Part shown: positions 16,324 to 46,459 of the stretch, piece by piece
Numbering within the stretch: the first letter of the stretch is position 1
How the letters are laid out: every line of letters begins with the position of its first letter
Source: a virus
Lineage: Duplodnaviria > Caudoviricetes
DNA length: 64,000 nucleotides
Virus record (IMG/VR): IMGVR_UViG_3300005670_000019
Strand: one strand, 5' to 3'
The notes under the pieces: model-generated
What the model saw: only the letters and a program-made list of their open reading frames with translations
What the model was told of the DNA's origin: nothing
The model's database searches: none
Made by a program: the position numbers and the translations under genes

Positions 16324-16420
16324 ACCATACCATTAGCAGAAATTTGTCGATTTTTCAAGGAAAATCAATAATTTCTAAAGGTTTTTGACTAAACTATTTA
16401 TAGATATTCCCTGGTATTGC

Positions 16421-16449
16421 TTGAAATTCGATGCCGTTTGGGGTACCTT
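16421..16449 (+). promoter_or_regulatory. Sigma70-type promoter
   Basis: TTGAAA-17 bp-TACCTT, then AAGGAG SD. Confidence 0.65.
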
Positions 16450-16468
16450 GGAATACAAGGAGAAACTG

Positions 16469-17854
16469 ATGGTAGACAAGCACACCGCCCACGAGGCACC
16501 GAAGAAGAACGAACCGAAGACGAACGACCAAGGTTCCATTCTAAACGAAGCAATCATGAAGCTGCGTCAATACAACGCGCAGCCGAATGACGAGGAGTTT
16601 CAGCGACTTTTCGTGAGCATCCTCATGCAGGAGCCTTTCCTTTCGACGATGGCTCTCAGTATCAACCGAATCGTCGACAACACCATGCCGACCGCATATG
16701 TTGGTGTGCAGCGTGATGGGACGGAGCTTGCCTTCGTTCTCGGATATAACGCAGATTTCATGCGTTCTTTGACGCGTGAAGTCCAGCTTGGCGTGATCAA
16801 GCACGAGCTTTATCACTTGGTTTTCAACCATATCACCTCGCGAGGTGTCGGTGATAAGCGCATGGCAAAGCTTTGGAACATTGCAACCGACCTTGCAATC
16901 AACTCGATTATCGGCAAGGATAGTTTGCCGAAGGTCTGTCTCGTTCCGGGTCAGCGCCCGCTCGACATGACCACGGGTAAGCCCTCAGAAAAAAAGGTGG
17001 CTGACTACATTGCCAAGGCAAAGGGAATGCAGGCTTCCGACCTTTACTTCGAGGAGTTGAAGGAAGTTTTGAAGGACGAACTGTCCAAGGGACAGGAAGC
17101 TCTTGAAATCGCCCTCGGCGGAATCGGAGAAATGGATGACCATTCCGGATGGGGCGATCTACCGGCTGAAATCGAAGAGCAGCTTCGTGAAAGCATTCGT
17201 GAGCTTGTTTCCGAGGCTGTCAAGAAGTGTGACCGTTCCAACAATTGGGGCTCGGTTCCCGCAGAAATGCAGGAATACATTCGAAAGATGCTCTCGAATG
17301 AAGTTGATTGGCGTTCGATTGTCAAGAACTTCCTTGGACGCTGCCGAACCTCGGACCGCTTGGCAACGATCAAGCGAATTAACAAGAAGGTTCCTTATGC
17401 TCACCCTGGCGTGAAGCGTAAGACTGTCGCAACTTTCGCATGTTTCATTGACCAGTCGGGATCGGTTGGTGATAATGACCTTGAGCTTTTCTTTGGAGAG
17501 CTTGGTTCTTTCTCTCGCGAAACTCAGTTGGACGTTTTTCATTTCGACACCGATGTTGACGAAAAGTCTCACACGGTTTGGCGAAAGAACGGACCAGTAC
17601 CTAAGCCGAAGCGTACTCGCTGTGGCGGAACGGATTTCGATGCCGTGGCTCGATTCGTAAACCGCCAGGAAAACCAGGGAAAGTGGTCGGGCATCGTAAT
17701 CCTAACGGATGGTTATGCTCCGAAGCTTGGAATGGTTAAGGGCGCAAAGGTTTTGTGGGTTATCACCGAGAGTGGTGATGCAAAGAGTGCAATTCGATCT
17801 GGTGACCTTGTTTGCCAGATGAAGCGTGCGAAGTCGTTCCAGCGACACGGGTGA
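16469..17854 (+). CDS. Zincin metallopeptidase + VWA domain protein (DUF2201-like)
   Basis: HELYH, WNIATDLAIN, DDHSGW, MIDAS DQSGS...GGTDF...LTDG; start at ATG 16469 after AAGGAG. Confidence 0.85.
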   Translation: MVDKHTAHEAPKKNEPKTNDQGSILNEAIMKLRQYNAQPNDEEFQRLFVSILMQEPFLSTMALSINRIVDNTMPTAYVGVQRDGTELAFVLGYNADFMRSLTREVQLGVIKHELYHLVFNHITSRGVGDKRMAKLWNIATDLAINSIIGKDSLPKVCLVPGQRPLDMTTGKPSEKKVADYIAKAKGMQASDLYFEELKEVLKDELSKGQEALEIALGGIGEMDDHSGWGDLPAEIEEQLRESIRELVSEAVKKCDRSNNWGSVPAEMQEYIRKMLSNEVDWRSIVKNFLGRCRTSDRLATIKRINKKVPYAHPGVKRKTVATFACFIDQSGSVGDNDLELFFGELGSFSRETQLDVFHFDTDVDEKSHTVWRKNGPVPKPKRTRCGGTDFDAVARFVNRQENQGKWSGIVILTDGYAPKLGMVKGAKVLWVITESGDAKSAIRSGDLVCQMKRAKSFQRHG

Positions 17855-17879
17855 ATTTCGGCTCCTTCTCCTTGCCAAG

Positions 17880-17908
17880 ATAAAGGCTCCTGTAATGGGA
17901 GCCTTTAT
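17880..17908 (+). terminator. Intrinsic terminator
   Basis: ataaaggctcc...ggagcctttat followed by a T-rich tail. Confidence 0.7.
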
Positions 17909-17916
17909 TTATTTTC

Positions 17917-17945
17917 TTGAAAATGCCTGCGCCTCGTGTTATTCT
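17917..17945 (+). promoter_or_regulatory. Sigma70-type promoter
   Basis: TTGAAA-17 bp (ending tgt)-TATTCT. Confidence 0.7.
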
Positions 17946-17969
17946 GGTATGGTAGATAAGGAACAAAAC

Positions 17970-18719
17970 ATGAACCCTTTTGCACTGCTAAGTAACTTTC
18001 TTGTCGCAAACATGGATTTGCGTGTCACCAAGTATGATGAACTTGAAAAAGGACTTCATGAAAGCAACCGCATAAAGGACACTTGGGACAGAAGTTTCGA
18101 TATTCCAAAAGGGTCCTTGATTTACATTTCTCGATACACCGCTGATACACTTTCTATTAGTTGCTATACGCCTGATGGAAAGCATGGAAAGGGAAAGATT
18201 CCTTTCTCTTCGGTTGAAGATGGAATGTTTTCATTGACTGACGAAACAATCTTTCAATGTAAGTTTCAAAAAGCACTTACTGGTCTTGGTTCCGATATCC
18301 TTATTCAATATTTTGAAAAGGAAAAGGAACCTTTGTACGAGGTAACGGTCAATCAAGGTTGTGATAACATTCCTCGCATTTCCACTGTGAGCATTCAAAA
18401 TCTCTTTTGGGACAGCAATCACGCCTGGCACCTCGTCCAGCGCGATTTTGCTCCATTCGGTGAATTTCCGGATCATCCTCTAAAGGACATTTTTGTGTCC
18501 TTGGACATTCTTTATCTTTGTGGTTGGATCGCACTGGAAGATTATAGACACATCGGGACGCAAAAATATACTCTGTTTCCGCGATTTCACAAGTTCAAAG
18601 ATGTAAAGATTGTTCCATTCCACAATGGATATCTTGAGGCACACAAAATCGTTTCCATAAATGCAAGTACGATCGCCAAGACCTATTTCAAAGAGCAAGC
18701 AAAGAAAGCAAAAGTATGA
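17970..18719 (+). CDS. Hypothetical protein (start revised to MNPF)
   Basis: AAGGA SD before ATG 17970. Confidence 0.7.
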   Translation: MNPFALLSNFLVANMDLRVTKYDELEKGLHESNRIKDTWDRSFDIPKGSLIYISRYTADTLSISCYTPDGKHGKGKIPFSSVEDGMFSLTDETIFQCKFQKALTGLGSDILIQYFEKEKEPLYEVTVNQGCDNIPRISTVSIQNLFWDSNHAWHLVQRDFAPFGEFPDHPLKDIFVSLDILYLCGWIALEDYRHIGTQKYTLFPRFHKFKDVKIVPFHNGYLEAHKIVSINASTIAKTYFKEQAKKAKV

Positions 18720-19165
18720 CAAAGGCAATTTTCCTTCGTGGACCTTCTGGTTCTGGCAAGAGCACTTGGACAAAAAAGAACTATCCCAATGCCGTTGTTT
18801 GTTCGGCTGACGACTTCTTCATCGATCAAAAGACTGGAGAATACAAGTGGGACGGTGATAAGTTGATGATCGCTCACAACGTTTGTCAAGCAAAGTTCAA
18901 GAAGGCTTTGATGAACAAGGAACCCGTGGTCGTCGTGGACAACACGATGGTCAAAATTCGTGATATGGAATGGTATTATGAAACGGCAACGAAGTTGGGA
19001 TACGACGTCGAAGTTGTTGAGTTTCGAAAGCCCTTGAGCACCATCCTTGGGCGCAACACGCACAACGTGCCAGATTTCGCAGTCGAGCGAATGTACCAGA
19101 CGATGAAGCAAAATCCGATTCCGAAAAACTGGAATGTCAAGGTGACGCAAGTTACCGAGGATTGA
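18716..19165 (+). CDS. AAA_33 / N4BP2-like polynucleotide kinase
   Basis: RGPSGSGKST, SADDFF, AH..CQ, VVVDNT, RNTHNVP. Confidence 0.8.
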   Translation: MTKAIFLRGPSGSGKSTWTKKNYPNAVVCSADDFFIDQKTGEYKWDGDKLMIAHNVCQAKFKKALMNKEPVVVVDNTMVKIRDMEWYYETATKLGYDVEVVEFRKPLSTILGRNTHNVPDFAVERMYQTMKQNPIPKNWNVKVTQVTED

Positions 19166-19827
19166 AGATGTTTCTCGAAAACTATCCTCGAAAATCAACT
19201 ATGAAGTTTTGGGATCTTGTCACCGACTCGAACTATAAAGAAGGAGTTTGGTTGAAATATGAAGACCTTGAAAACCCCAAAGAGAGTTTTCAGCTACTTC
19301 TAAGCATTGACCATTGGTGGACCTTTTCCCGATTTTTTGGACAAATAAGTATTGTTGAAGACCTTTTGAAGGTAGGATCAGTTGCGCCCACTGTCGGTTC
19401 AATCCTTCCAATGAGTACACACAGTTTTCCAGAAGTCAATGAAGGACAAACATGGATTTCTCTTTGTGGAAAAAATGTAGGCTATACAGGCACGAAGCCG
19501 CTTTTTTCTGACGGTCCGCTCGGTGTAGGAACAGACCGAGACAAAAAACTTGCTTGTAAGTGGTCGACAACTTTCAAGGAAATTGAAAAACGATACGGAT
19601 GTGTTCCTGATGGATTTTATCCATTCCTCAACTGCGAAGGGCATAAGTTCAGATATAGTTATATCTCCCTTGCAATTCTGGTTGCTGGTGAATATATCTT
19701 TCCGCTTCCTTATGGATTTAATTTTGCGGCGAAGGCTGCACTATTTCCATTTGAAAACGGATTACTTTCGTTTCATAAAAACCTTTTCAAGAAGAGTGAC
19801 AATGGCAAATCTCTTTTCAAAAGATGA
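19162..19827 (+). CDS. Hypothetical protein
   Basis: 221-aa ORF. Confidence 0.7.
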   Translation: MKMFLENYPRKSTMKFWDLVTDSNYKEGVWLKYEDLENPKESFQLLLSIDHWWTFSRFFGQISIVEDLLKVGSVAPTVGSILPMSTHSFPEVNEGQTWISLCGKNVGYTGTKPLFSDGPLGVGTDRDKKLACKWSTTFKEIEKRYGCVPDGFYPFLNCEGHKFRYSYISLAILVAGEYIFPLPYGFNFAAKAALFPFENGLLSFHKNLFKKSDNGKSLFKR

Positions 19828-20683
19828 AAATGTTCCTCACATTATGCCCGTGCCGGAAGGTACATTTCGCGCTGTAAGAAAACATGACATTCATCTTGGT
19901 GTCGACATTTATATGCCAGAGGGAACCGAAGTAATTTTTCCCTCCACGTTCAAACTTACAGCAACCGATGCAGTCGTAAGAAAGATTGAAACGTTTACTG
20001 GTCCAAATTCAACTCCTCCGACACCATGGTGGAATGAAACAAAATCTGTTATTCTTCAATGCAATAATTCTGGCAGATTTTTTATCTTCGGAGAAATCGA
20101 AACCTCTCTAAAGGTTGGCGACATGCTCAAGCCTGGTGATGTTGTTGGAACTGTTTCGAAAGTGTTGAAGACCTACAAAGGAATTCCACAATCAATGCTT
20201 CATTTTGAAATCTGGAACCATGGGTATGAAACGTTTTTGCAAAGTTGTGATTTTGGACTTTGTTCTGTTTCACTTGAATGGAATAGAAAGGGTTTCATTC
20301 TTTCAGGTGAAAGTTTTGACGGAAATACAAAAGAGTATTACTTTGAAGATAAAGAAGACTTGTTTGAGCGTTCATTAATTGGATTTTATCAAAAATGCGT
20401 TGATGATGCCGAGATTCTTCTCCAAGATGAAAATGCAGACAACCTCGAAGTCGGAGTTCTTTATGAGGTTGAAAAGGATTTGCAGTTTCATCAGTATTCA
20501 TATGGGTTTTCCTATCACCGTTCTCCTCGAAAAGGAGAGGCGTTTGTTTACTTAGGAAGGTCTAAAAGAAAAGTTGGAATCGATCAACGAGAGGAAACGG
20601 TTTTGCATTTTGCCAATCATGAAGCGGCAGAAATCAAGATCCCGTCATTTAGACTTTCTCACTTTTTGAAAAAGGTTGGTTGA
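19802..20683 (+). CDS. M23-family peptidase-like protein with C-terminal extension
   Basis: HLGVDIYMPEGTEV, LKVGDMLKPGDVVG, MLHFE (HxxxD / HFE-type Zn ligands). Confidence 0.7.
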   Translation: MANLFSKDENVPHIMPVPEGTFRAVRKHDIHLGVDIYMPEGTEVIFPSTFKLTATDAVVRKIETFTGPNSTPPTPWWNETKSVILQCNNSGRFFIFGEIETSLKVGDMLKPGDVVGTVSKVLKTYKGIPQSMLHFEIWNHGYETFLQSCDFGLCSVSLEWNRKGFILSGESFDGNTKEYYFEDKEDLFERSLIGFYQKCVDDAEILLQDENADNLEVGVLYEVEKDLQFHQYSYGFSYHRSPRKGEAFVYLGRSKRKVGIDQREETVLHFANHEAAEIKIPSFRLSHFLKKVG

Positions 20684-20721: not shown

Positions 20722-21213
20722 ATGCAAATTAGACACTATTCAATCATTCGACCATGCACAAAAGATGTAAAGAAGTTCGATCAGGCTCTTCTTGATATCA
20801 AGAAGGAAATGCAAGAACTTTGTGAACGAACAAATGGAATCGGACTTTCAGCTTCTCAAGTTGGATTAGAAGAACGTCTTTTCATCTTTCAAAGAGAGAA
20901 CGGCAATTGGATTCTTGTTTGTAATCCAAAAATGATCCCTCAAAAGAATGAAGGTCTTCAACGTCATGTTGAAGGTTGTCTTTCTGTTCCTAACGAAGCC
21001 TTCGAGGTTCGCAGGTGGGCAAAAGTAAATGCATCCTGGCAAGATGAAAACGGAAACTTTGTCGAAGAAGAGCTTTCGGGAAGAAACGCTCAAGTCTTTC
21101 AACATGAGTTTGATCATCTTGTAGCTCGTTCTATTGTTGATAGAGCAAAGAGCCAATATCGTTCAAGTCGCTTTGAAGCCTCTCGTCAAAAGAAAAAGAG
21201 AAGCAAGAAATGA
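20722..21213 (+). CDS. def: Peptide deformylase
   Basis: GIGLSASQVG, EGCLS, QHEFDHL. Confidence 0.95.
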   Translation: MQIRHYSIIRPCTKDVKKFDQALLDIKKEMQELCERTNGIGLSASQVGLEERLFIFQRENGNWILVCNPKMIPQKNEGLQRHVEGCLSVPNEAFEVRRWAKVNASWQDENGNFVEEELSGRNAQVFQHEFDHLVARSIVDRAKSQYRSSRFEASRQKKKRSKK

Positions 21214-21622: not shown

Positions 21623-21989
21623 GCTCCTTCTATCTCTAAAGCCAGGACAGGTTGTGTACAGAACGGCAGTAAATGAAAATATTGTTCCGGGTCTTTCATT
21701 GAGCTCGATAACAGACCGAACAAATCCATTCGTTATAAATCCTGTGGCTCTACAGAGGGGGATTCACCCTTTCGAAGAACATGACCCAATGATTTACTAT
21801 GGAGAAGGTAAAGCAAAACTTTCAACCCTTTATTATGGTGGTGATGTTATAGAAGAAGATATTGTAGAAAGATATGTAGAAGATATTTTCATTTTCTTAC
21901 ATCATTTCAATAATGCAACTTACCAGTTTAGTTTTAGTAAATCCAGTCTTTACGCCGAAAATTTTCACACTCTATTTTATATTCTTTGA
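21606..21989 (+). CDS. Hypothetical protein
   Basis: Start MTEVSK; LKPGQVVY motif. Confidence 0.65.
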   Translation: MTEVSKLLLSLKPGQVVYRTAVNENIVPGLSLSSITDRTNPFVINPVALQRGIHPFEEHDPMIYYGEGKAKLSTLYYGGDVIEEDIVERYVEDIFIFLHHFNNATYQFSFSKSSLYAENFHTLFYIL

Positions 21990-22014
21990 TATTCCATCAA
22001 CAACGTGTTAGGAT
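21986..22014 (+). promoter_or_regulatory. Sigma70-type promoter, leaderless
   Basis: TTGATA-17 bp (ending tgt)-TAGGAT-5 nt-ATG. Confidence 0.65.
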
Positions 22015-22019
22015 GAAGT

Positions 22020-23273
22020 ATGGAAAAAAGACATGTCTACATTTTGGGTGGAGGAACGGTTCAACATATTCGTCCACACCTTTCTCTTGCAGCACCCGCT
22101 TATGGTTCAACTGCCAAGAAACTTGTTGAAATTGTAAGCATTACAGGACATCCATATGATGTTGGACTTACAAAGATGGCAGGACCTCGGTGGGCAAGTG
22201 AATGCATTGGGGAAACAAATGAAGAAGTTGAAAACTGGATTCAAGAAAATATTCTTGGAAACAAGGAACCTTCAATTGTTTTCTTGAACGTCGCTTTTTG
22301 CGACTTCCGTGCATCTATTGATGACGGAACTTTTCAGTCAGGAAAACATCTTCCACGTCTAAAGACTTCCGAGGGAAAGAAGTCCATCATTCTCGAACCG
22401 ACAGAAAAGGTTCTTTCAAAAATCCGAAAAGAACGAAAGGATATCTTTCTTGTTGCTTGGAAGACAACAGCAGGATCTACAAGAGAAGAAATGTTTGAGG
22501 CTGGTTTGAAGCTTCTAAAGAAAAACTCTTGCAACCTAGTTTTTGTAAATGACATTCATACTCGTTACAACATGATTGTAACTCCTGAACTTGCTGAGTA
22601 TGCTTTTTCTCAAGACCGAGAGGCTTCTCTAAAAGAGCTTGTTTACATGGCTCTAAATCGTTCATCTGCCCACTTTACAAGAACCACTTGGAATAAGGGA
22701 GAGTTGAAAGAGATTGAAGAAAGTCCAAAAACTCTTCAAGAAGTTCTAAAGAGTTGCATTGAACTTGGAGCCTATCAAGCATTCAATGATGTAACAGTGG
22801 GACATTTTGGTTATAGAGATCCAAACTCTTCAAACGTTCTTTGGTCTTCTCGTCGGAAACAAAACTACAATAAAGCAGGTGGGACGGACCTTTGCAAAGT
22901 AGAGTTTGATCTCGCAAATAACATGCAGACAGTTACCACTCCAATAGCTTCTATGAAGGCTTCTGCTGGCGCTAGGAGCCAGTTTCACGTCCTTCAAAAA
23001 TTCAAGGAGCTAGACTGCATCATTCATTTTCACTGCCCTCTAAAGCCCGATTACGATAAAAGAATAGGCATCAGACCCCAACGTCTCTTTGAGTGCGGCT
23101 CAACAGAATGTGGATTGAATACAGTCGTAGGTATGTCAAAAATCGACAATGACTTTGCGGTTGTTATGCTTGACAAGCATGGACCAAACATTTGTTTCTC
23201 TTCAAAAGCAGACCCAAAGAAAATCGTTGAGTTTATCAAAAACAACTTCGATCTTACAAAAAGAGCAAAATGA
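22020..23273 (+). CDS. CoaB (phosphopantothenate-cysteine ligase)-like domain fused to a class II aldolase/adducin-like domain
   Basis: N-terminal ILGGGT.Q.I, VAFCDF, L.PT.K.L..I, FLVAWKTT, CNLVFVND; C-terminal GHFGYR, IIHFHCP, CGS.E, VVMLDKHG. Confidence 0.7.
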   Translation: MEKRHVYILGGGTVQHIRPHLSLAAPAYGSTAKKLVEIVSITGHPYDVGLTKMAGPRWASECIGETNEEVENWIQENILGNKEPSIVFLNVAFCDFRASIDDGTFQSGKHLPRLKTSEGKKSIILEPTEKVLSKIRKERKDIFLVAWKTTAGSTREEMFEAGLKLLKKNSCNLVFVNDIHTRYNMIVTPELAEYAFSQDREASLKELVYMALNRSSAHFTRTTWNKGELKEIEESPKTLQEVLKSCIELGAYQAFNDVTVGHFGYRDPNSSNVLWSSRRKQNYNKAGGTDLCKVEFDLANNMQTVTTPIASMKASAGARSQFHVLQKFKELDCIIHFHCPLKPDYDKRIGIRPQRLFECGSTECGLNTVVGMSKIDNDFAVVMLDKHGPNICFSSKADPKKIVEFIKNNFDLTKRAK

Positions 23274-26209: not shown

Positions 26210-26641
26210 ATGATCACGCACTACCTCTACAACGTCCAACTGATGACCACGTACGCATTCATGGAGGGCATGAAGGAAGGCGACCCCATGACCGTTGTGA
26301 AGACGGTGGCACGTCCGTCCCCGCAAGACGTCGAGCTTCATTCAGAGGTTTTGCTCTGCGACGACGCTGAGAAGCTTTGGAAAAAGCTTGAGAAAACGGG
26401 ATATTCCACTTTCGAGGACTTTGTGCAGAAGAACCCCGAATTCTACGGGGCACCTTGTCGCCCACAAAAGACGGCATGTTTTCATTCTGGTCTGGCGAAG
26501 TGGGAAAGCGTCGAAAAGATGAAGGAAGCCTTCTTTCGTAGCTTTCACCCCGCGGGATATGGCTCGTATGTCGATGTTTTTTGGACGGGCTTGAACGACG
26601 TGGTCTTTTGGAAGGCTTCGCGCACTTCGAGCTGCGACTGA
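26210..26641 (+). CDS. Hypothetical protein (GC3-rich)
   Basis: 143-aa ORF; C-terminal FHPAGYGS...W..SR..SCD. Confidence 0.75.
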   Translation: MITHYLYNVQLMTTYAFMEGMKEGDPMTVVKTVARPSPQDVELHSEVLLCDDAEKLWKKLEKTGYSTFEDFVQKNPEFYGAPCRPQKTACFHSGLAKWESVEKMKEAFFRSFHPAGYGSYVDVFWTGLNDVVFWKASRTSSCD

Positions 26642-26677
26642 AAAACCCTGAAATTTCACACACAAACAACCGAGGGG

Positions 26678-26706
26678 ATGGGGGCAACAGCCCCCATTTC
26701 TTTTTC
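26678..26706 (+). terminator. Intrinsic terminator
   Basis: atgggggc-aaca-gcccccat followed by ttcttttt. Confidence 0.75.
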
Positions 26707-26716
26707 TGGATATTGG

Positions 26717-26745
26717 TTGAAAATCGCTTCGAACTGTGTTATAGT
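26717..26745 (+). promoter_or_regulatory. Sigma70-type promoter, leaderless
   Basis: TTGAAA-17 bp (ending tgt)-TATAGT-ggaagc-ATG. Confidence 0.8.
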
Positions 26746-26751
26746 GGAAGC

Positions 26752-28059
26752 ATGATGAAGGTTCAAGAATATCTCCTGACGCACTCCTTGAGCGACCTTG
26801 CCCGCGAGCACGGCGTTTACGCACGTGTAGCAGACCACAAGTTTTCGCTCAACTACGACCAGATCGAGGCTCGCGACAGCGACGAGATTGCTCAGGAATG
26901 TCGCGGACTTGTGTTGACTCCATCCGATCACCGCACGGTTTCGCAGGATGAAATCGTTGGAAACACCCTCGTGATGGCACGTACGATGCGTCGTTTCTTC
27001 AACTATGGTCAGGAAGCTGCTGCGAAGGTAGACTTCGACCACAAGGAAACGCGTATCTACGAAAAGTTGGATGGGACGCTTTGCATCCTCTACTTCGATT
27101 TCGTGATGCAAAAGTGGTGTGTGGCAACGCGTTCGGTTCCGAACGCTGACCTTCCGATCGACGGGTTCGGAGATTGGACTTTCTCGTCTCTTTTCTGGCA
27201 TTCGTTGGCAGAAAGCTCGTGTCAGTCGGGGGTGAAGGACTCCGCAAAGCAGAATGAAATTCGTGTTGTGTTGCCCGTTTCAAACGTTCCGGGGCAACGA
27301 GAAGTGAAGTTGCAATCCGTCGCTTCGGACTTGACCTTTTGTTTCGAACTTACGACTCCTGAAAATCAGGTCGTGGTTCGTTACGACGATTACAAGGTGA
27401 CGCTTCTGTCTGTCATCGACAATGTTTATGGGGAAGAGTTTCTGCCGGACGACTATGCATCGATGCTTGGCGTGGAAACTCCTGTTTCGCATCGCTTGTC
27501 TTCCGTCACCGAACTGATGGATTTCGTGTCCAATCGCGACCCGAAGGCATTCGAAGGCGTCGTTGTTTGTGACCACAATTTCAATCGTGTGAAGATCAAG
27601 TCGGCAGGATATCTTGCCTACAATAAGATCCGCGACAACGTTTTGAAGTCGCCTCGTGCTCTTTTGGAAGTAATTCTCCTCGAAAAGCTCGACGACGTTT
27701 CCGTTGTTCTTTCGGACGGGCAGAAGAAGGTCGCGTTCGAAATGGCAGAAAAGTATCGTCAGTTCGTCCACCAACAGAACGAGCTTTTCAACGACCTCTT
27801 GGCATACATTGCCGAAGAGAATGAGAAGCTTGGATGGCGCTGGGATTTCGGGGATGCAGAGCAGCGAAAGTGTTTTGCACTCGAAGTACAGCGTCGTAAG
27901 GCAAACATCGGACCGATGATGCAGCTTTACAAGCTCAAGTGCGCGAACGTTTGGAAAACGCCGTCGTTCTCGGACTACATAAACGCTCAAAAGGACCCGC
28001 AACATGGGTGGTCGAACGCTTTCTTGGATGGGATTCTTTCTCAACTTCCGAAGGATTGA
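26752..28059 (+). CDS. T4 Rnl1-like RNA ligase
   Basis: ECRGLV, RFFN, motif I EKLDGT, FELTTPENQVV, EGVVV, RVKIKS. Confidence 0.88.
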   Translation: MMKVQEYLLTHSLSDLAREHGVYARVADHKFSLNYDQIEARDSDEIAQECRGLVLTPSDHRTVSQDEIVGNTLVMARTMRRFFNYGQEAAAKVDFDHKETRIYEKLDGTLCILYFDFVMQKWCVATRSVPNADLPIDGFGDWTFSSLFWHSLAESSCQSGVKDSAKQNEIRVVLPVSNVPGQREVKLQSVASDLTFCFELTTPENQVVVRYDDYKVTLLSVIDNVYGEEFLPDDYASMLGVETPVSHRLSSVTELMDFVSNRDPKAFEGVVVCDHNFNRVKIKSAGYLAYNKIRDNVLKSPRALLEVILLEKLDDVSVVLSDGQKKVAFEMAEKYRQFVHQQNELFNDLLAYIAEENEKLGWRWDFGDAEQRKCFALEVQRRKANIGPMMQLYKLKCANVWKTPSFSDYINAQKDPQHGWSNAFLDGILSQLPKD

Positions 28060-28067
28060 TTAATTCT

Positions 28068-28859
28068 ATGATTACTCTTTTTGTGTTTTTGCAGCTTGGA
28101 GTCGTTCCTGACATTCAAGCATTGATGGACACCGAGAATGCCATCGTGGCAAGTGCTGATGAAGCACAAACTTTGATTGGTTCAAGAACCACAGAGTTTC
28201 GTCTTTGGGGTCGTTATCGAAACAGAGCACGAAATATCCAAAGGGCTTCACGGGCAATCGATGGAATTACAATTCAGCCTGGAGAGGTTTTCTCCTTCAA
28301 TGAGACTGTTGGACCTCGAACGCTTCGTCGTGGTTATCGCCACGCTCCAGCAATCCTCCGAGGAGAGTTGAGCGAAAGTGTTGGTGGAGGGGTGTGCCAG
28401 GTTGCTTCCACAATCTTTGCTGCTGCGCTTGAAGCAGGCATGGATTTTGTTGAGGTTACGCCTCATTCCAGATACATGTCATACATCGATCCGGGCTATG
28501 ACGCAACAGTCTTCTATGGAAGCAAGGATTTTCGTTTCAGAAACCCGTTTCATTTTCCAGTAACTCTATCAGTTCAGGTTCATGAAAACCAACTGATCGT
28601 GGAGTTTTATGGAAAGGAACGTGTATATGATGTCGAGATTGCAATCAATCAGATGGAGTTTGAAGAACGAGAAGTTGTTCGAATTCCAAACGGAAACTTG
28701 CCCGAAGGTCGTTGTCGTGTCATTGAACGTGGGACGGATGCTTTGAAGATTAGGCGTTCGGTTCGTTTCATTCCTCTTGTTCAAGGATATGAAGAGCGTA
28801 TCTGGTTCGACGAAATCCGTTATGAAAGTTCAGATAGAATTCTGGAATGTAACCGATGA
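28068..28859 (+). CDS. VanW-like domain protein with G5-like tail and hydrophobic N-terminus
   Basis: R..NI......IDG..I.PGE.FSFN..VG.RT...GY..A, GGGVCQVASTIF, HS..Y..PG.DATV, DFRFRN. Confidence 0.85.
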   Translation: MITLFVFLQLGVVPDIQALMDTENAIVASADEAQTLIGSRTTEFRLWGRYRNRARNIQRASRAIDGITIQPGEVFSFNETVGPRTLRRGYRHAPAILRGELSESVGGGVCQVASTIFAAALEAGMDFVEVTPHSRYMSYIDPGYDATVFYGSKDFRFRNPFHFPVTLSVQVHENQLIVEFYGKERVYDVEIAINQMEFEEREVVRIPNGNLPEGRCRVIERGTDALKIRRSVRFIPLVQGYEERIWFDEIRYESSDRILECNR

Positions 28860-45927: not shown

Positions 45928-46313
45928 CATTTGATGAATGGTGGGTTGAATACACAACTCCAGAGATGAGAGCAGACCTAAAAGCATATTATGGTTTGAC
46001 GTTTGAAACACTTCGTTCAATTGTCGAAAAGGAAGGAATTTGCCCTTCTTCTAAATTGGATATAAAAATTCATTCTTATCCAATTGCTGGTCGTACCCTC
46101 GGTTTCAAATTCGCTTTCATAAGCGACGGCGAAATTCTTCATGAAAGAGAACTTACACCTAAAACTATGTTAGGACCAGGGGATCTTTTTGAAGAAGATG
46201 CTGCAATTCCTCGCTATTTTTCAAATGATGGAAAGTTGTATAGAAAGTATGGCGGAAAATTAGAAGCAGGGCAACTTGTTGATGGCGAGTTTCAACCAGA
46301 TGAGGTCAAATGA
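45924..46313 (+). CDS. Hypothetical protein
   Basis: GGAGG SD. Confidence 0.7.
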   Translation: MTFDEWWVEYTTPEMRADLKAYYGLTFETLRSIVEKEGICPSSKLDIKIHSYPIAGRTLGFKFAFISDGEILHERELTPKTMLGPGDLFEEDAAIPRYFSNDGKLYRKYGGKLEAGQLVDGEFQPDEVK

Positions 46314-46459
46314 AAACAGAAATGAAGGCACGTATTCGTTGGTTGATGCACAACACCTTGGTTCATCCAATATGTGGAATTCTTTGGTTTTTTGAATTCA
46401 ATGAATTGGCTGATCGGATCCATAATCTAGATGATTATGGTGAAATTTTCTTTGAATAA
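46310..46459 (+). CDS. 49-aa His-rich small protein (not in ORF track)
   Basis: MKTEMKARIRWLMHNTLVHPICGILWFFEFNELADRIHNLDDYGEIFFE; ATGA overlap, GAGG SD. Confidence 0.65.
   Translation: MKTEMKARIRWLMHNTLVHPICGILWFFEFNELADRIHNLDDYGEIFFE

Follow-up and report, generated by a model that had tools for sequence, protein, structure and literature searches.

The two halves of the protein described here resemble CoaB, the phosphopantothenate-cysteine ligase (PPCS; EC 6.3.2.5), and the class II aldolase/adducin superfamily (PF00596), respectively. In Escherichia coli CoaB, a conserved Lys is reportedly required for acyl-CMP formation, and the Asn of the (S/T)N motif (N210) is said to be required for passing the activated acyl group to cysteine. 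We found no published link between CoaB, or its Pfam family PF04127, and either phages or class II aldolases, and comparative-genomics surveys of jumbo phages and of viral NAD/ADP-ribose systems make no mention of an architecture joining the two. Here we analyse a 64,000-nucleotide stretch of Caudoviricetes DNA (IMG/VR record IMGVR_UViG_3300005670_000019; the whole stretch is hereafter referred to as the window), in which one gene encodes such a fusion, P0001. The fusion is a real and strongly constrained protein that joins a domain of the CoaB fold to a metal domain of the class II aldolase fold, and it belongs to a large, strongly conserved and uncharacterised enzyme family common to giant phages, candidate phyla radiation (CPR) bacteria and predatory bacteria. 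The gene and its two domains are laid out as follows.

22020–23273, + strand: fusion gene for P0001, ATG start, 417 amino acids, CoaB-like domain followed by class II aldolase-like domain (open reading frame (ORF) list, translation, Pfam DFP and Aldolase_II)
22020–22664, + strand: CoaB/PPCS-fold domain, residues 1–215 (Pfam DFP, PHROG 35624, profile match to 2gk4, Foldseek, invariant columns)
22665–23270, + strand: class II aldolase-fold domain, residues 216–417 (Foldseek match to FucA, VIA, profile alignment to AraD, invariant columns)

A sequence-only reading of the window had proposed this fusion with altered catalytic residues, and the ORF and every motif that it quoted are present in the translation: AAPAYG at residues 24–29, ASAGARSQFH at 314–323, HFH at 336–338 and KHG at 386–388. 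The full-length AlphaFold 2 (AF2) model was predicted with high confidence (predicted local distance difference test (pLDDT) 95.9, predicted template-modelling score 0.91), and the predicted structures of both halves match the folds named in that reading. A BFVD fold search with the full model returned nothing at E ≤ 0.001.

The N-terminal half is a CoaB-fold domain. Residues 2–182 match Pfam DFP (PF04127; E 5e-6, 26.8 bits against a cut-off of 22), residues 5–213 match the PHROG 35624 profile (E 4.3e-32), and a 64-sequence family profile finds the monofunctional CoaB structure of Streptococcus pneumoniae, 2gk4 (E 3.5e-12). Foldseek with the AF2 model likewise returned 2gk4 (E 3e-12), the matches listed at the top all being CoaB/PPCS (E 3e-12 to 3e-7). 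Aligned with 2gk4, the family keeps the glycine-rich loop (GGGT), the Asp of the (S/A)DY or A..D motif (A92/D95, in AFCDF) and the ANDx/ANDL motif (N177-D178), together with K148-T-T and, in place of a Lys, R113. The alignment also bears out the altered loop noted from the sequence: 'ITNHSTG' of 2gk4 corresponds to 'LSAPAYG' in the family, so that the (S/T)N Asn is Ala25 (at least 90% conserved) and SSG reads AYG, and the phosphate-loop Ser/Thr pair of CoaB is not kept. The Lys of 'AKISS' in 2gk4 aligns with the invariant Arg113, with the charge kept and the residue changed. H16, R18 and H20 are newly conserved. As the sequence-only reading had stated, no CoaC domain accompanies this half: a Pfam search of P0001 detected no CoaC/Flavoprotein domain.

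The C-terminal half has the class II aldolase fold. The Pfam Aldolase_II match (residues 241–340; E 6.5e-4, 20.1 bits) lies just below the cut-off of 22.2, which is passed by the relatives P0226 (34.8) and P0281 (31.5), and many other relatives carry a precomputed PF00596 match. Folded alone, the domain reached a pLDDT of 97.3; its model matched FucA in Foldseek (E 3.5e-6), and VIA-align gave Z 13.1 to 4c25 (root mean squared deviation 3.3 over 158 residues), followed by 12.8 and 12.5, with 15 chains at Z ≥ 8 and the class II aldolase fold in all among the matches listed. The structural matches comprise FucA, RhaD, AraD, MtnB/APIP, the decarboxylases HMPDdc (2z7b is also listed) and YgbL, and the iron oxygenases POD, NovR and TqaM. 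The profile alignment to AraD pairs 'KPSSD' with 'KPSAG', 'HTH' with 'HFH' and 'sHGP' with 'KHGP'. The three-His metal site is thus intact (H336, H338 and H387, all invariant) and the usual S.E acid is missing, both as first noticed: Ser315 is kept, and Gly317 stands where FucA has Glu73 as general acid and AraD has Asp. The sugar-phosphate pocket of class II aldolases is kept only in part, and new conserved residues appear, namely R279, K280 and K313 and the four cysteines C333, C339, C359 and C364 (ECGSxECG motif).

A word-indexed search with P0001 returned 1563 homologues; the best 120 of these are nearly all full length (400–450 amino acids, 44–55% identity), and many lie on contigs of 100–530 kb. 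An exhaustive search across 50% clusters yielded 300 at E ≤ 1e-30; it also showed each of the two domains occurring by itself, and a form whose N part is shorter. The longer members held no new extra Pfam domains. Among 64 relatives at 45–55% identity, about 50 columns are invariant, which places the fusion far beyond chance; they are concentrated in the motifs of the one domain as well as the other, so both domains are under selection as enzymes. In the INPHARED collection, the full fusion occurs in a single uncultured 595-kb phage, and the N domain occurs by itself in cultured Otagovirus, Bertelyvirus and Milchi/Astolliot phages. The idea that the C domain had been split off as a separate gene in cultured phages was rejected: in Milchi and CcrSC, the genes that come after the stand-alone CoaB-like gene show no similarity to the aldolase-like half. 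GTDB genomes gave 105 confirmed loci, some on contigs of 0.7–1.4 Mb, in Saccharibacteria and other CPR bacteria, Bdellovibrionales, Micavibrio and other Alphaproteobacteria, Polyangiaceae and a few archaeal metagenome-assembled genomes (MAGs). A tree of 149 proteins needs 12 switches between viral and cellular carriers.

The family is almost certainly not a CoA enzyme, judging from its sequence signatures and from the gene content of its carriers. Against the NCBIfam CoaB equivalogs, P0001 scores 31.5 (cut-off 265) for NF005231, 24.3 (217.2) for TIGR02114 and 19.5 (219.7) for TIGR00521. Five fusion-bearing genomes (G001–G005) were searched for DFP, Flavoprotein (CoaC), CoaD and CoaE: none of the four was matched in a complete 1.2-Mb Saccharimonadia chromosome (G001) or in a Paceibacterota genome (G004), and only CoaD and CoaE were matched in a Bdellovibrionales genome (G003) and in a Saccharibacteria genome (G005). 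An Armatimonadota genome (G002) carries a separate, complete CoaBC besides the fusion, and in two proteobacterial contigs a normal CoaBC divergently adjoins it. The fusion therefore neither fills a CoaB gap in these genomes nor has the downstream enzymes at its disposal, and together with the low equivalog scores and the change from Asn to Ala this argues against a CoA product, in line with the proposal of the sequence-only reading that something other than CoA is made. Such genes tend to be named CoaB or 'aldolase' in databases, a likely mislabel that this analysis corrects. In G003, the genome behind locus L128, we also observed an apparent CoaD–CoaE fusion (C6:2933–4084, a 414-amino-acid frame) in addition to separate CoaD and CoaE, and found no CoaB or CoaC, a set consistent with salvage of phosphopantetheine from prey.

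What the fusion does instead can be proposed by analogy with its folds. It may well be an autonomous ligase dependent on a nucleoside triphosphate (NTP), combined with a metal-dependent step on a phosphorylated small molecule, and serve to salvage or remodel a host-derived metabolite, although we hold this with a little less than even confidence. The N domain would use CTP or ATP to activate the carboxylate of a strongly anionic, phosphate-bearing small molecule as an acyl-nucleoside monophosphate (acyl-NMP), and the activated group would then be taken up either by a non-cysteine acceptor or by an internal nucleophile. Coupled to this, the metal domain would act on that molecule in a non-aldol step; the options known in the class II aldolase fold are decarboxylation, epimerisation, dehydration and oxygenation, and such a step is plausible because decarboxylases and non-haem iron oxygenases share this fold (2z7b, YgbL, POD, NovR and TqaM). 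The product would not be a CoA intermediate. An anionic substrate would fit the basic character of the family, which has a median isoelectric point of 8.6 and many conserved Arg and Lys residues. Since giant phages, CPR bacteria and predators all live off another cell's metabolites, and since the cellular copies are accompanied by helix-turn-helix (HTH) regulators, the enzyme would most likely serve to salvage or remodel a metabolite taken from the host, such as a nucleotide, a ribose phosphate or a cofactor-type compound.

Several points weigh against this proposal. The ligase and metal chemistry is read by analogy from the folds alone, and acyl-NMP formation is not certain, because the catalytic Lys is Arg and the phosphate-loop Ser-Ser is gone. 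The neighbourhoods point to no single pathway; the phage copies lie amid ADP-ribose, RNA-repair and counter-defence genes, a setting that an anti-defence role fits as well as salvage does. Recurrent partner candidates, an M23-like protein and an orphan protein (see below), hint at a peptide or macromolecular substrate.

For the neighbourhoods, ORFs were called in 84 viral and about 70 cellular loci, clustered, and the clusters named by Pfam, with 149 loci placed on the tree. This survey of distribution and gene context, which had been suggested with the sequence-only reading, did not bear out the idea that the enzyme cooperates with the nearby NAD-dependent epimerase: that gene lies four downstream of the fusion, and apart from the window only the closest syntenic relative, L004, has it, the other approximately 150 loci examined lacking it near the fusion. 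Of that reading, the folds, the missing CoaC, the altered residues and a product very unlikely to be CoA stood, and the epimerase partnership did not. No neighbour is found in more than about 20% of the 149 loci, which suggests that the enzyme is autonomous in most genomes. Within 7 kb of the fusion, viral loci contain ADP-ribosylglycohydrolase (16–19 loci), HNH (18), RNA ligases (14), CYTH (10–13) and NADAR, Thg1 and HD_4 (8–9 each); overall, ADP-ribosylglycohydrolase is a neighbour in 19 of the 149 loci, with 9 independent gains or losses on the tree, RNA ligases in 14, CYTH in 13, HD_4 in 9 and NADAR and Thg1 in 8 each. An association with NAD/ADP-ribose genes holds loosely. Of 66 distinct genes found right after the fusion, only one encodes a class I S-adenosylmethionine-dependent methyltransferase, and a dedicated methyltransferase partner is absent from this clade. 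In two loci from Nomurabacteria and Kaiserbacteria (L159:2790–3959 and L165), the gene directly downstream of the fusion encodes a 389-amino-acid nucleoside 2-deoxyribosyltransferase-like protein. In alphaproteobacterial loci (L095:8964–10226 and L156; four loci in all), a 420-amino-acid protein with GTP_CH_N and GTP cyclohydrolase II domains lies just past the fusion, M23-like and orphan genes.

In cells, a divergent TrmB-like HTH regulator lies nearby in 24–29 of about 70 loci, mostly CPR MAGs. A 488-amino-acid family member on an alphaproteobacterial contig (L175:1542–3008) shares 42% identity with P0001 and is longer at its N terminus by about 75 residues, which give weak XRE/HipB-type HTH signals (E approximately 0.01) and make it a possible enzyme–repressor form; the ORF calls at other Alphaproteobacteria and Bdellovibrionales loci are also 480–507 amino acids long. 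Taken together, the TrmB-like genes of CPR bacteria and the putative HTH of L175 suggest metabolite-responsive control of the fusion in cells. The TrmB-like regulator of CPR bacteria, the tentative HTH in this one alphaproteobacterial relative, the M23-like partner and the orphan protein with its His motif are all newly found here.

The M23-like gene lies upstream of the fusion in the window.

19802–20683, + strand: M23-like gene, 293 amino acids from the most likely start, ATG 19802 (mechanical ORF from 19550; Pfam, BLAST and hidden Markov model (HMM) matches)

Its product scores below the Pfam M23 cut-off (E 8e-5, 23.2 bits against 28.7) and is 33–40% identical to the small M23-like proteins encoded after the fusion elsewhere (BLAST E 4e-24 to L120 and 5e-20 to L007; HMM E 4.5e-26). 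Profile matches of this family in the PDB are zoocin A and lysostaphin. The Zn ligands (H..D and the last H) are invariant, and the positions that we take, from the LytM assignment, to be those of the two catalytic His read YGE and SMLHLE, that is, Glu and Met; with both catalytic His replaced, the protein departs from M23 family members at the active site. The gene directly follows the fusion in 10 cellular loci and is near it in 6 viral loci including the window; in Pseudomonas phage Milchi, a member of the same family comes after the stand-alone CoaB-like gene. All of the relatives nearest to the window on the tree (L004, L007, L021 and L008/9) have it, and it occurs in only 2 of the 7 complete huge-phage genomes that carry the fusion. 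It is thus a recurrent and facultative partner candidate, newly recognised here, with an apparently altered active site. A predicted co-fold of the fusion with the M23-like domain scored 0.00 against a mark of 0.32 and carries no weight either way.

The orphan is a protein of about 110 amino acids with invariant W, HN, H(P) and H residues, present in 157 clusters only. Its gene is directly downstream of the fusion in 16 cellular loci and follows it in 25 of the 149 loci overall, with 17 independent changes on the tree; in the alphaproteobacterial and Bdellovibrionales loci, the fusion is followed first by the M23-like gene and then by the orphan. Reciprocal look-ups found a fusion gene no more than 3 kb away in 3 of 4 cases. 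The family has no PDB sequence match and no NCBIfam match, a representative gave no Pfam match, and none of 120 relatives has a precomputed one. The window itself holds a 48-codon ORF between two larger genes (46310–46456, + strand) with the W-x2-H-N-x3-H-P...H motif of the orphan's C-terminal half (orphan HMM E 2e-6 within the window) and with the N-terminal half missing. On a 132-kb contig (L173:1616–3369), the orphan directly follows an Acb1-like (anti-CBASS) gene and a RlaP nucleotidyltransferase gene, and there is no fusion gene within 3 kb of it.

Other explanations have to be set beside the salvage or remodelling proposal. One, which we think rather unlikely but worth stating, extends it: the fusion could be the core of an undescribed ligase-plus-metal-lyase step that makes or recycles a metabolite derived from a nucleotide or ribose phosphate (for example, one related to ADP-ribose/NAD, or another cofactor-type compound), needed by giant phages, CPR episymbionts and Bdellovibrio- or Micavibrio-like predators, sensed in cells by the fusion's own HTH regulators, and sustaining or protecting infection in phages. 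Slightly less probable, and unlikely overall, is a counter-defence enzyme, in which the phage copy would modify, destroy or re-synthesise an immunity nucleotide (NAD+/ADP-ribose derivatives or cyclic-nucleotide signals) and the cellular copies would be derived from phages. Such a role would make sense of the ADP-ribosylglycohydrolase, CYTH, NADAR, HD_4, Thg1 and RNA ligase genes within 7 kb, of the NUDIX, AcrVA2-like and ARG genes that flank the fusion in the huge-phage contigs L005 and L006, of the His-phosphatase and ARG genes that adjoin it in some Saccharibacteria loci, of the orphan's one occurrence beside Acb1 and RlaP, and of the repeated switches between viral and cellular carriers. 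However, these neighbours lie kilobases away, each in at most 13% of loci, and are typical of huge-phage accessory regions generally; no PADLOC or anti-defence family assignment was obtained; and the fact that CPR bacteria and predators carry the fusion on the chromosome, together with a dedicated HTH regulator, suggests housekeeping metabolism.

A ligase directed at peptides or macromolecules, to which we give a distinctly low probability, would use the CoaB-like domain to activate the carboxylate of a peptide, a peptidoglycan-type stem peptide, a protein or a modified RNA nucleoside, working with the M23-like Zn protein, the orphan or both. The CoaC relatives EpiD and MrsD act on peptides, and the positions of the two partner genes next to the fusion and, for the M23-like gene, after Milchi's stand-alone gene would be explained; yet the partners are facultative (the orphan in 157 clusters against 1563 fusions), the orphan has no conserved C-terminal residue of the kind that a carboxylate-activating tagger would need, and the M23-like protein has lost both catalytic His. 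It is more doubtful still that the CoaB-like half does not ligate at all and is only a nucleotide-binding module, regulatory or substrate-anchoring, for the metal enzyme of the C-terminal half. Replacement of the (S/T)N Asn, the phosphate-loop Ser-Ser and the catalytic Lys, and the existence of stand-alone forms of both domains, would agree with a mere binding role, but the N half is conserved as strongly as the C half, its invariant polar residues (R18, D95, R113, K130, R136, K140, D141, K148, N177 and D178) exceed what binding needs, and cultured phages keep it with no aldolase-like partner. Least probable by far is a genuine, divergent phosphopantothenate-cysteine ligase of CoA synthesis or salvage: the CoaB fold, the DFP match and the canonical CoaBC adjoining the fusion in two proteobacterial contigs speak for it, against equivalog scores an order of magnitude under the cut-offs, an Ala in place of the Asn for the cysteine step, and an occurrence both in genomes lacking CoaC, CoaD and CoaE and beside complete CoaBC.

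With more than 1,500 sequences and about 50 invariant residues, the family is among the larger fully uncharacterised enzyme families of huge phages, and it extends to CPR bacteria and bacterial predators, which rely on the metabolites of another cell. Once its substrate is identified, the CoaB and class II aldolase superfamilies would gain a new reaction, and a metabolite important for parasitic lifestyles or for phage–host conflict could come to light.

Around the fusion gene, the window is phage-like, with about 40% GC, and the genes run co-directionally as a block: DUF2201 metallopeptidase/VWA, AAA_33 kinase, M23-like protein, peptide deformylase, two small ORFs and the fusion gene, followed by three small ORFs, the NAD-dependent epimerase/dehydratase, an Rnl1-type RNA ligase and a VanW-like gene. 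A megablast search with the region's DNA gave no match among cultured phages, and no BLAST-level paralogy was found among the small flanking ORFs. Proteins identical to P0001 occur on metagenome contigs of up to 69 kb, and L004, a syntenic 300-kb contig, encodes a fusion protein 54% identical to P0001. The DUF2201 metallopeptidase/VWA-like gene, a 297-amino-acid ORF and the AAA_33 (polynucleotide kinase-type) gene (16385–19165, + strand) are repeated in this arrangement in L004, as is the peptide deformylase gene (20722–21213, + strand; Pfam E 2.6e-33), which in the window lies between the M23-like and fusion genes. Farther downstream (26581–28859, + strand), the T4 Rnl1-type RNA ligase gene (Pfam E 7e-12) precedes the VanW-like gene, whose match is strong (E 1.4e-47) and whose presence in a phage is unusual. 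Directly upstream of the fusion gene, one further feature was considered.

21986–22014, + strand: promoter-like sequence TTGATA-17-TAGGAT (consensus scan, 9 of 12 positions matched), which would place the transcription start at the ATG

The sequence-only reading had assigned the gene its own leaderless promoter. Promoter-like matches in the region number 21, against 14.9 ± 3.1 in shuffles, and are not clearly above that background. The AGGA at 22010–22013, inside the promoter-like match, is an ordinary Shine–Dalgarno site 6 nucleotides before the ATG and 30 nucleotides past the upstream gene. A leaderless promoter is therefore no better supported than an ordinary Shine–Dalgarno arrangement, and leaderless expression is not established.

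The fusion can be set against four known systems. With CoaB/PPCS, its N half shares the fold (Foldseek E 3e-12 to 1e-8, TM 0.7 on the target; the closest solved relatives are S. pneumoniae 2gk4 and then the M. smegmatis and E. coli CoaB domains), the Gly-rich loop (GGT), the A..D and ANDx motifs and a basic residue where CoaB has its catalytic Lys. It differs in its low identity (13–17%), its lack of a CoaC partner, its attachment in P0001 to an aldolase-fold domain, the exchanges Asn to Ala, SSG to AYG and Lys to Arg, and the new invariant residues H16, R18 and H20. With the class II aldolase/adducin superfamily, compared through FucA, AraD, RhaD, MtnB/APIP, HMPDdc, YgbL/OtnC, POD, NovR and TqaM, the C half has in common the fold (VIA Z 10–13; Foldseek E 1e-6 to 1e-3 across members, the best being 3.5e-6 to FucA), the HxH...H metal triad and the 'PS' of the phosphate-binding PSS(E/D) motif. 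Identity is 12–18%, however, the acid Glu/Asp has become Gly, the Asn of GN.S has become His262, and the extra basic cluster R279/K280/K313, the four conserved Cys and the fusion to a ligase domain set it apart. The stand-alone proteins of PHROG 35624, carried by the Otagovirus phiPsa374 group, Caulobacter Bertelyvirus and the Pseudomonas phages Milchi and Astolliot, are 30–37% identical to the N half (E 1e-18 to 1e-26), and Milchi's copy is followed by an M23-like gene of the same family; unlike P0001, they have no aldolase-like domain, and the adjoining genes encode no homologous C domain. The enzyme–repressors of the BirA and NadR type resemble the family by analogy only, in that one alphaproteobacterial member apparently has an N-terminal HTH before the enzyme and the CPR members are paired with a divergent HTH regulator; their catalytic folds are unrelated, the signal for that N-terminal HTH is weak, and the phage protein lacks one.

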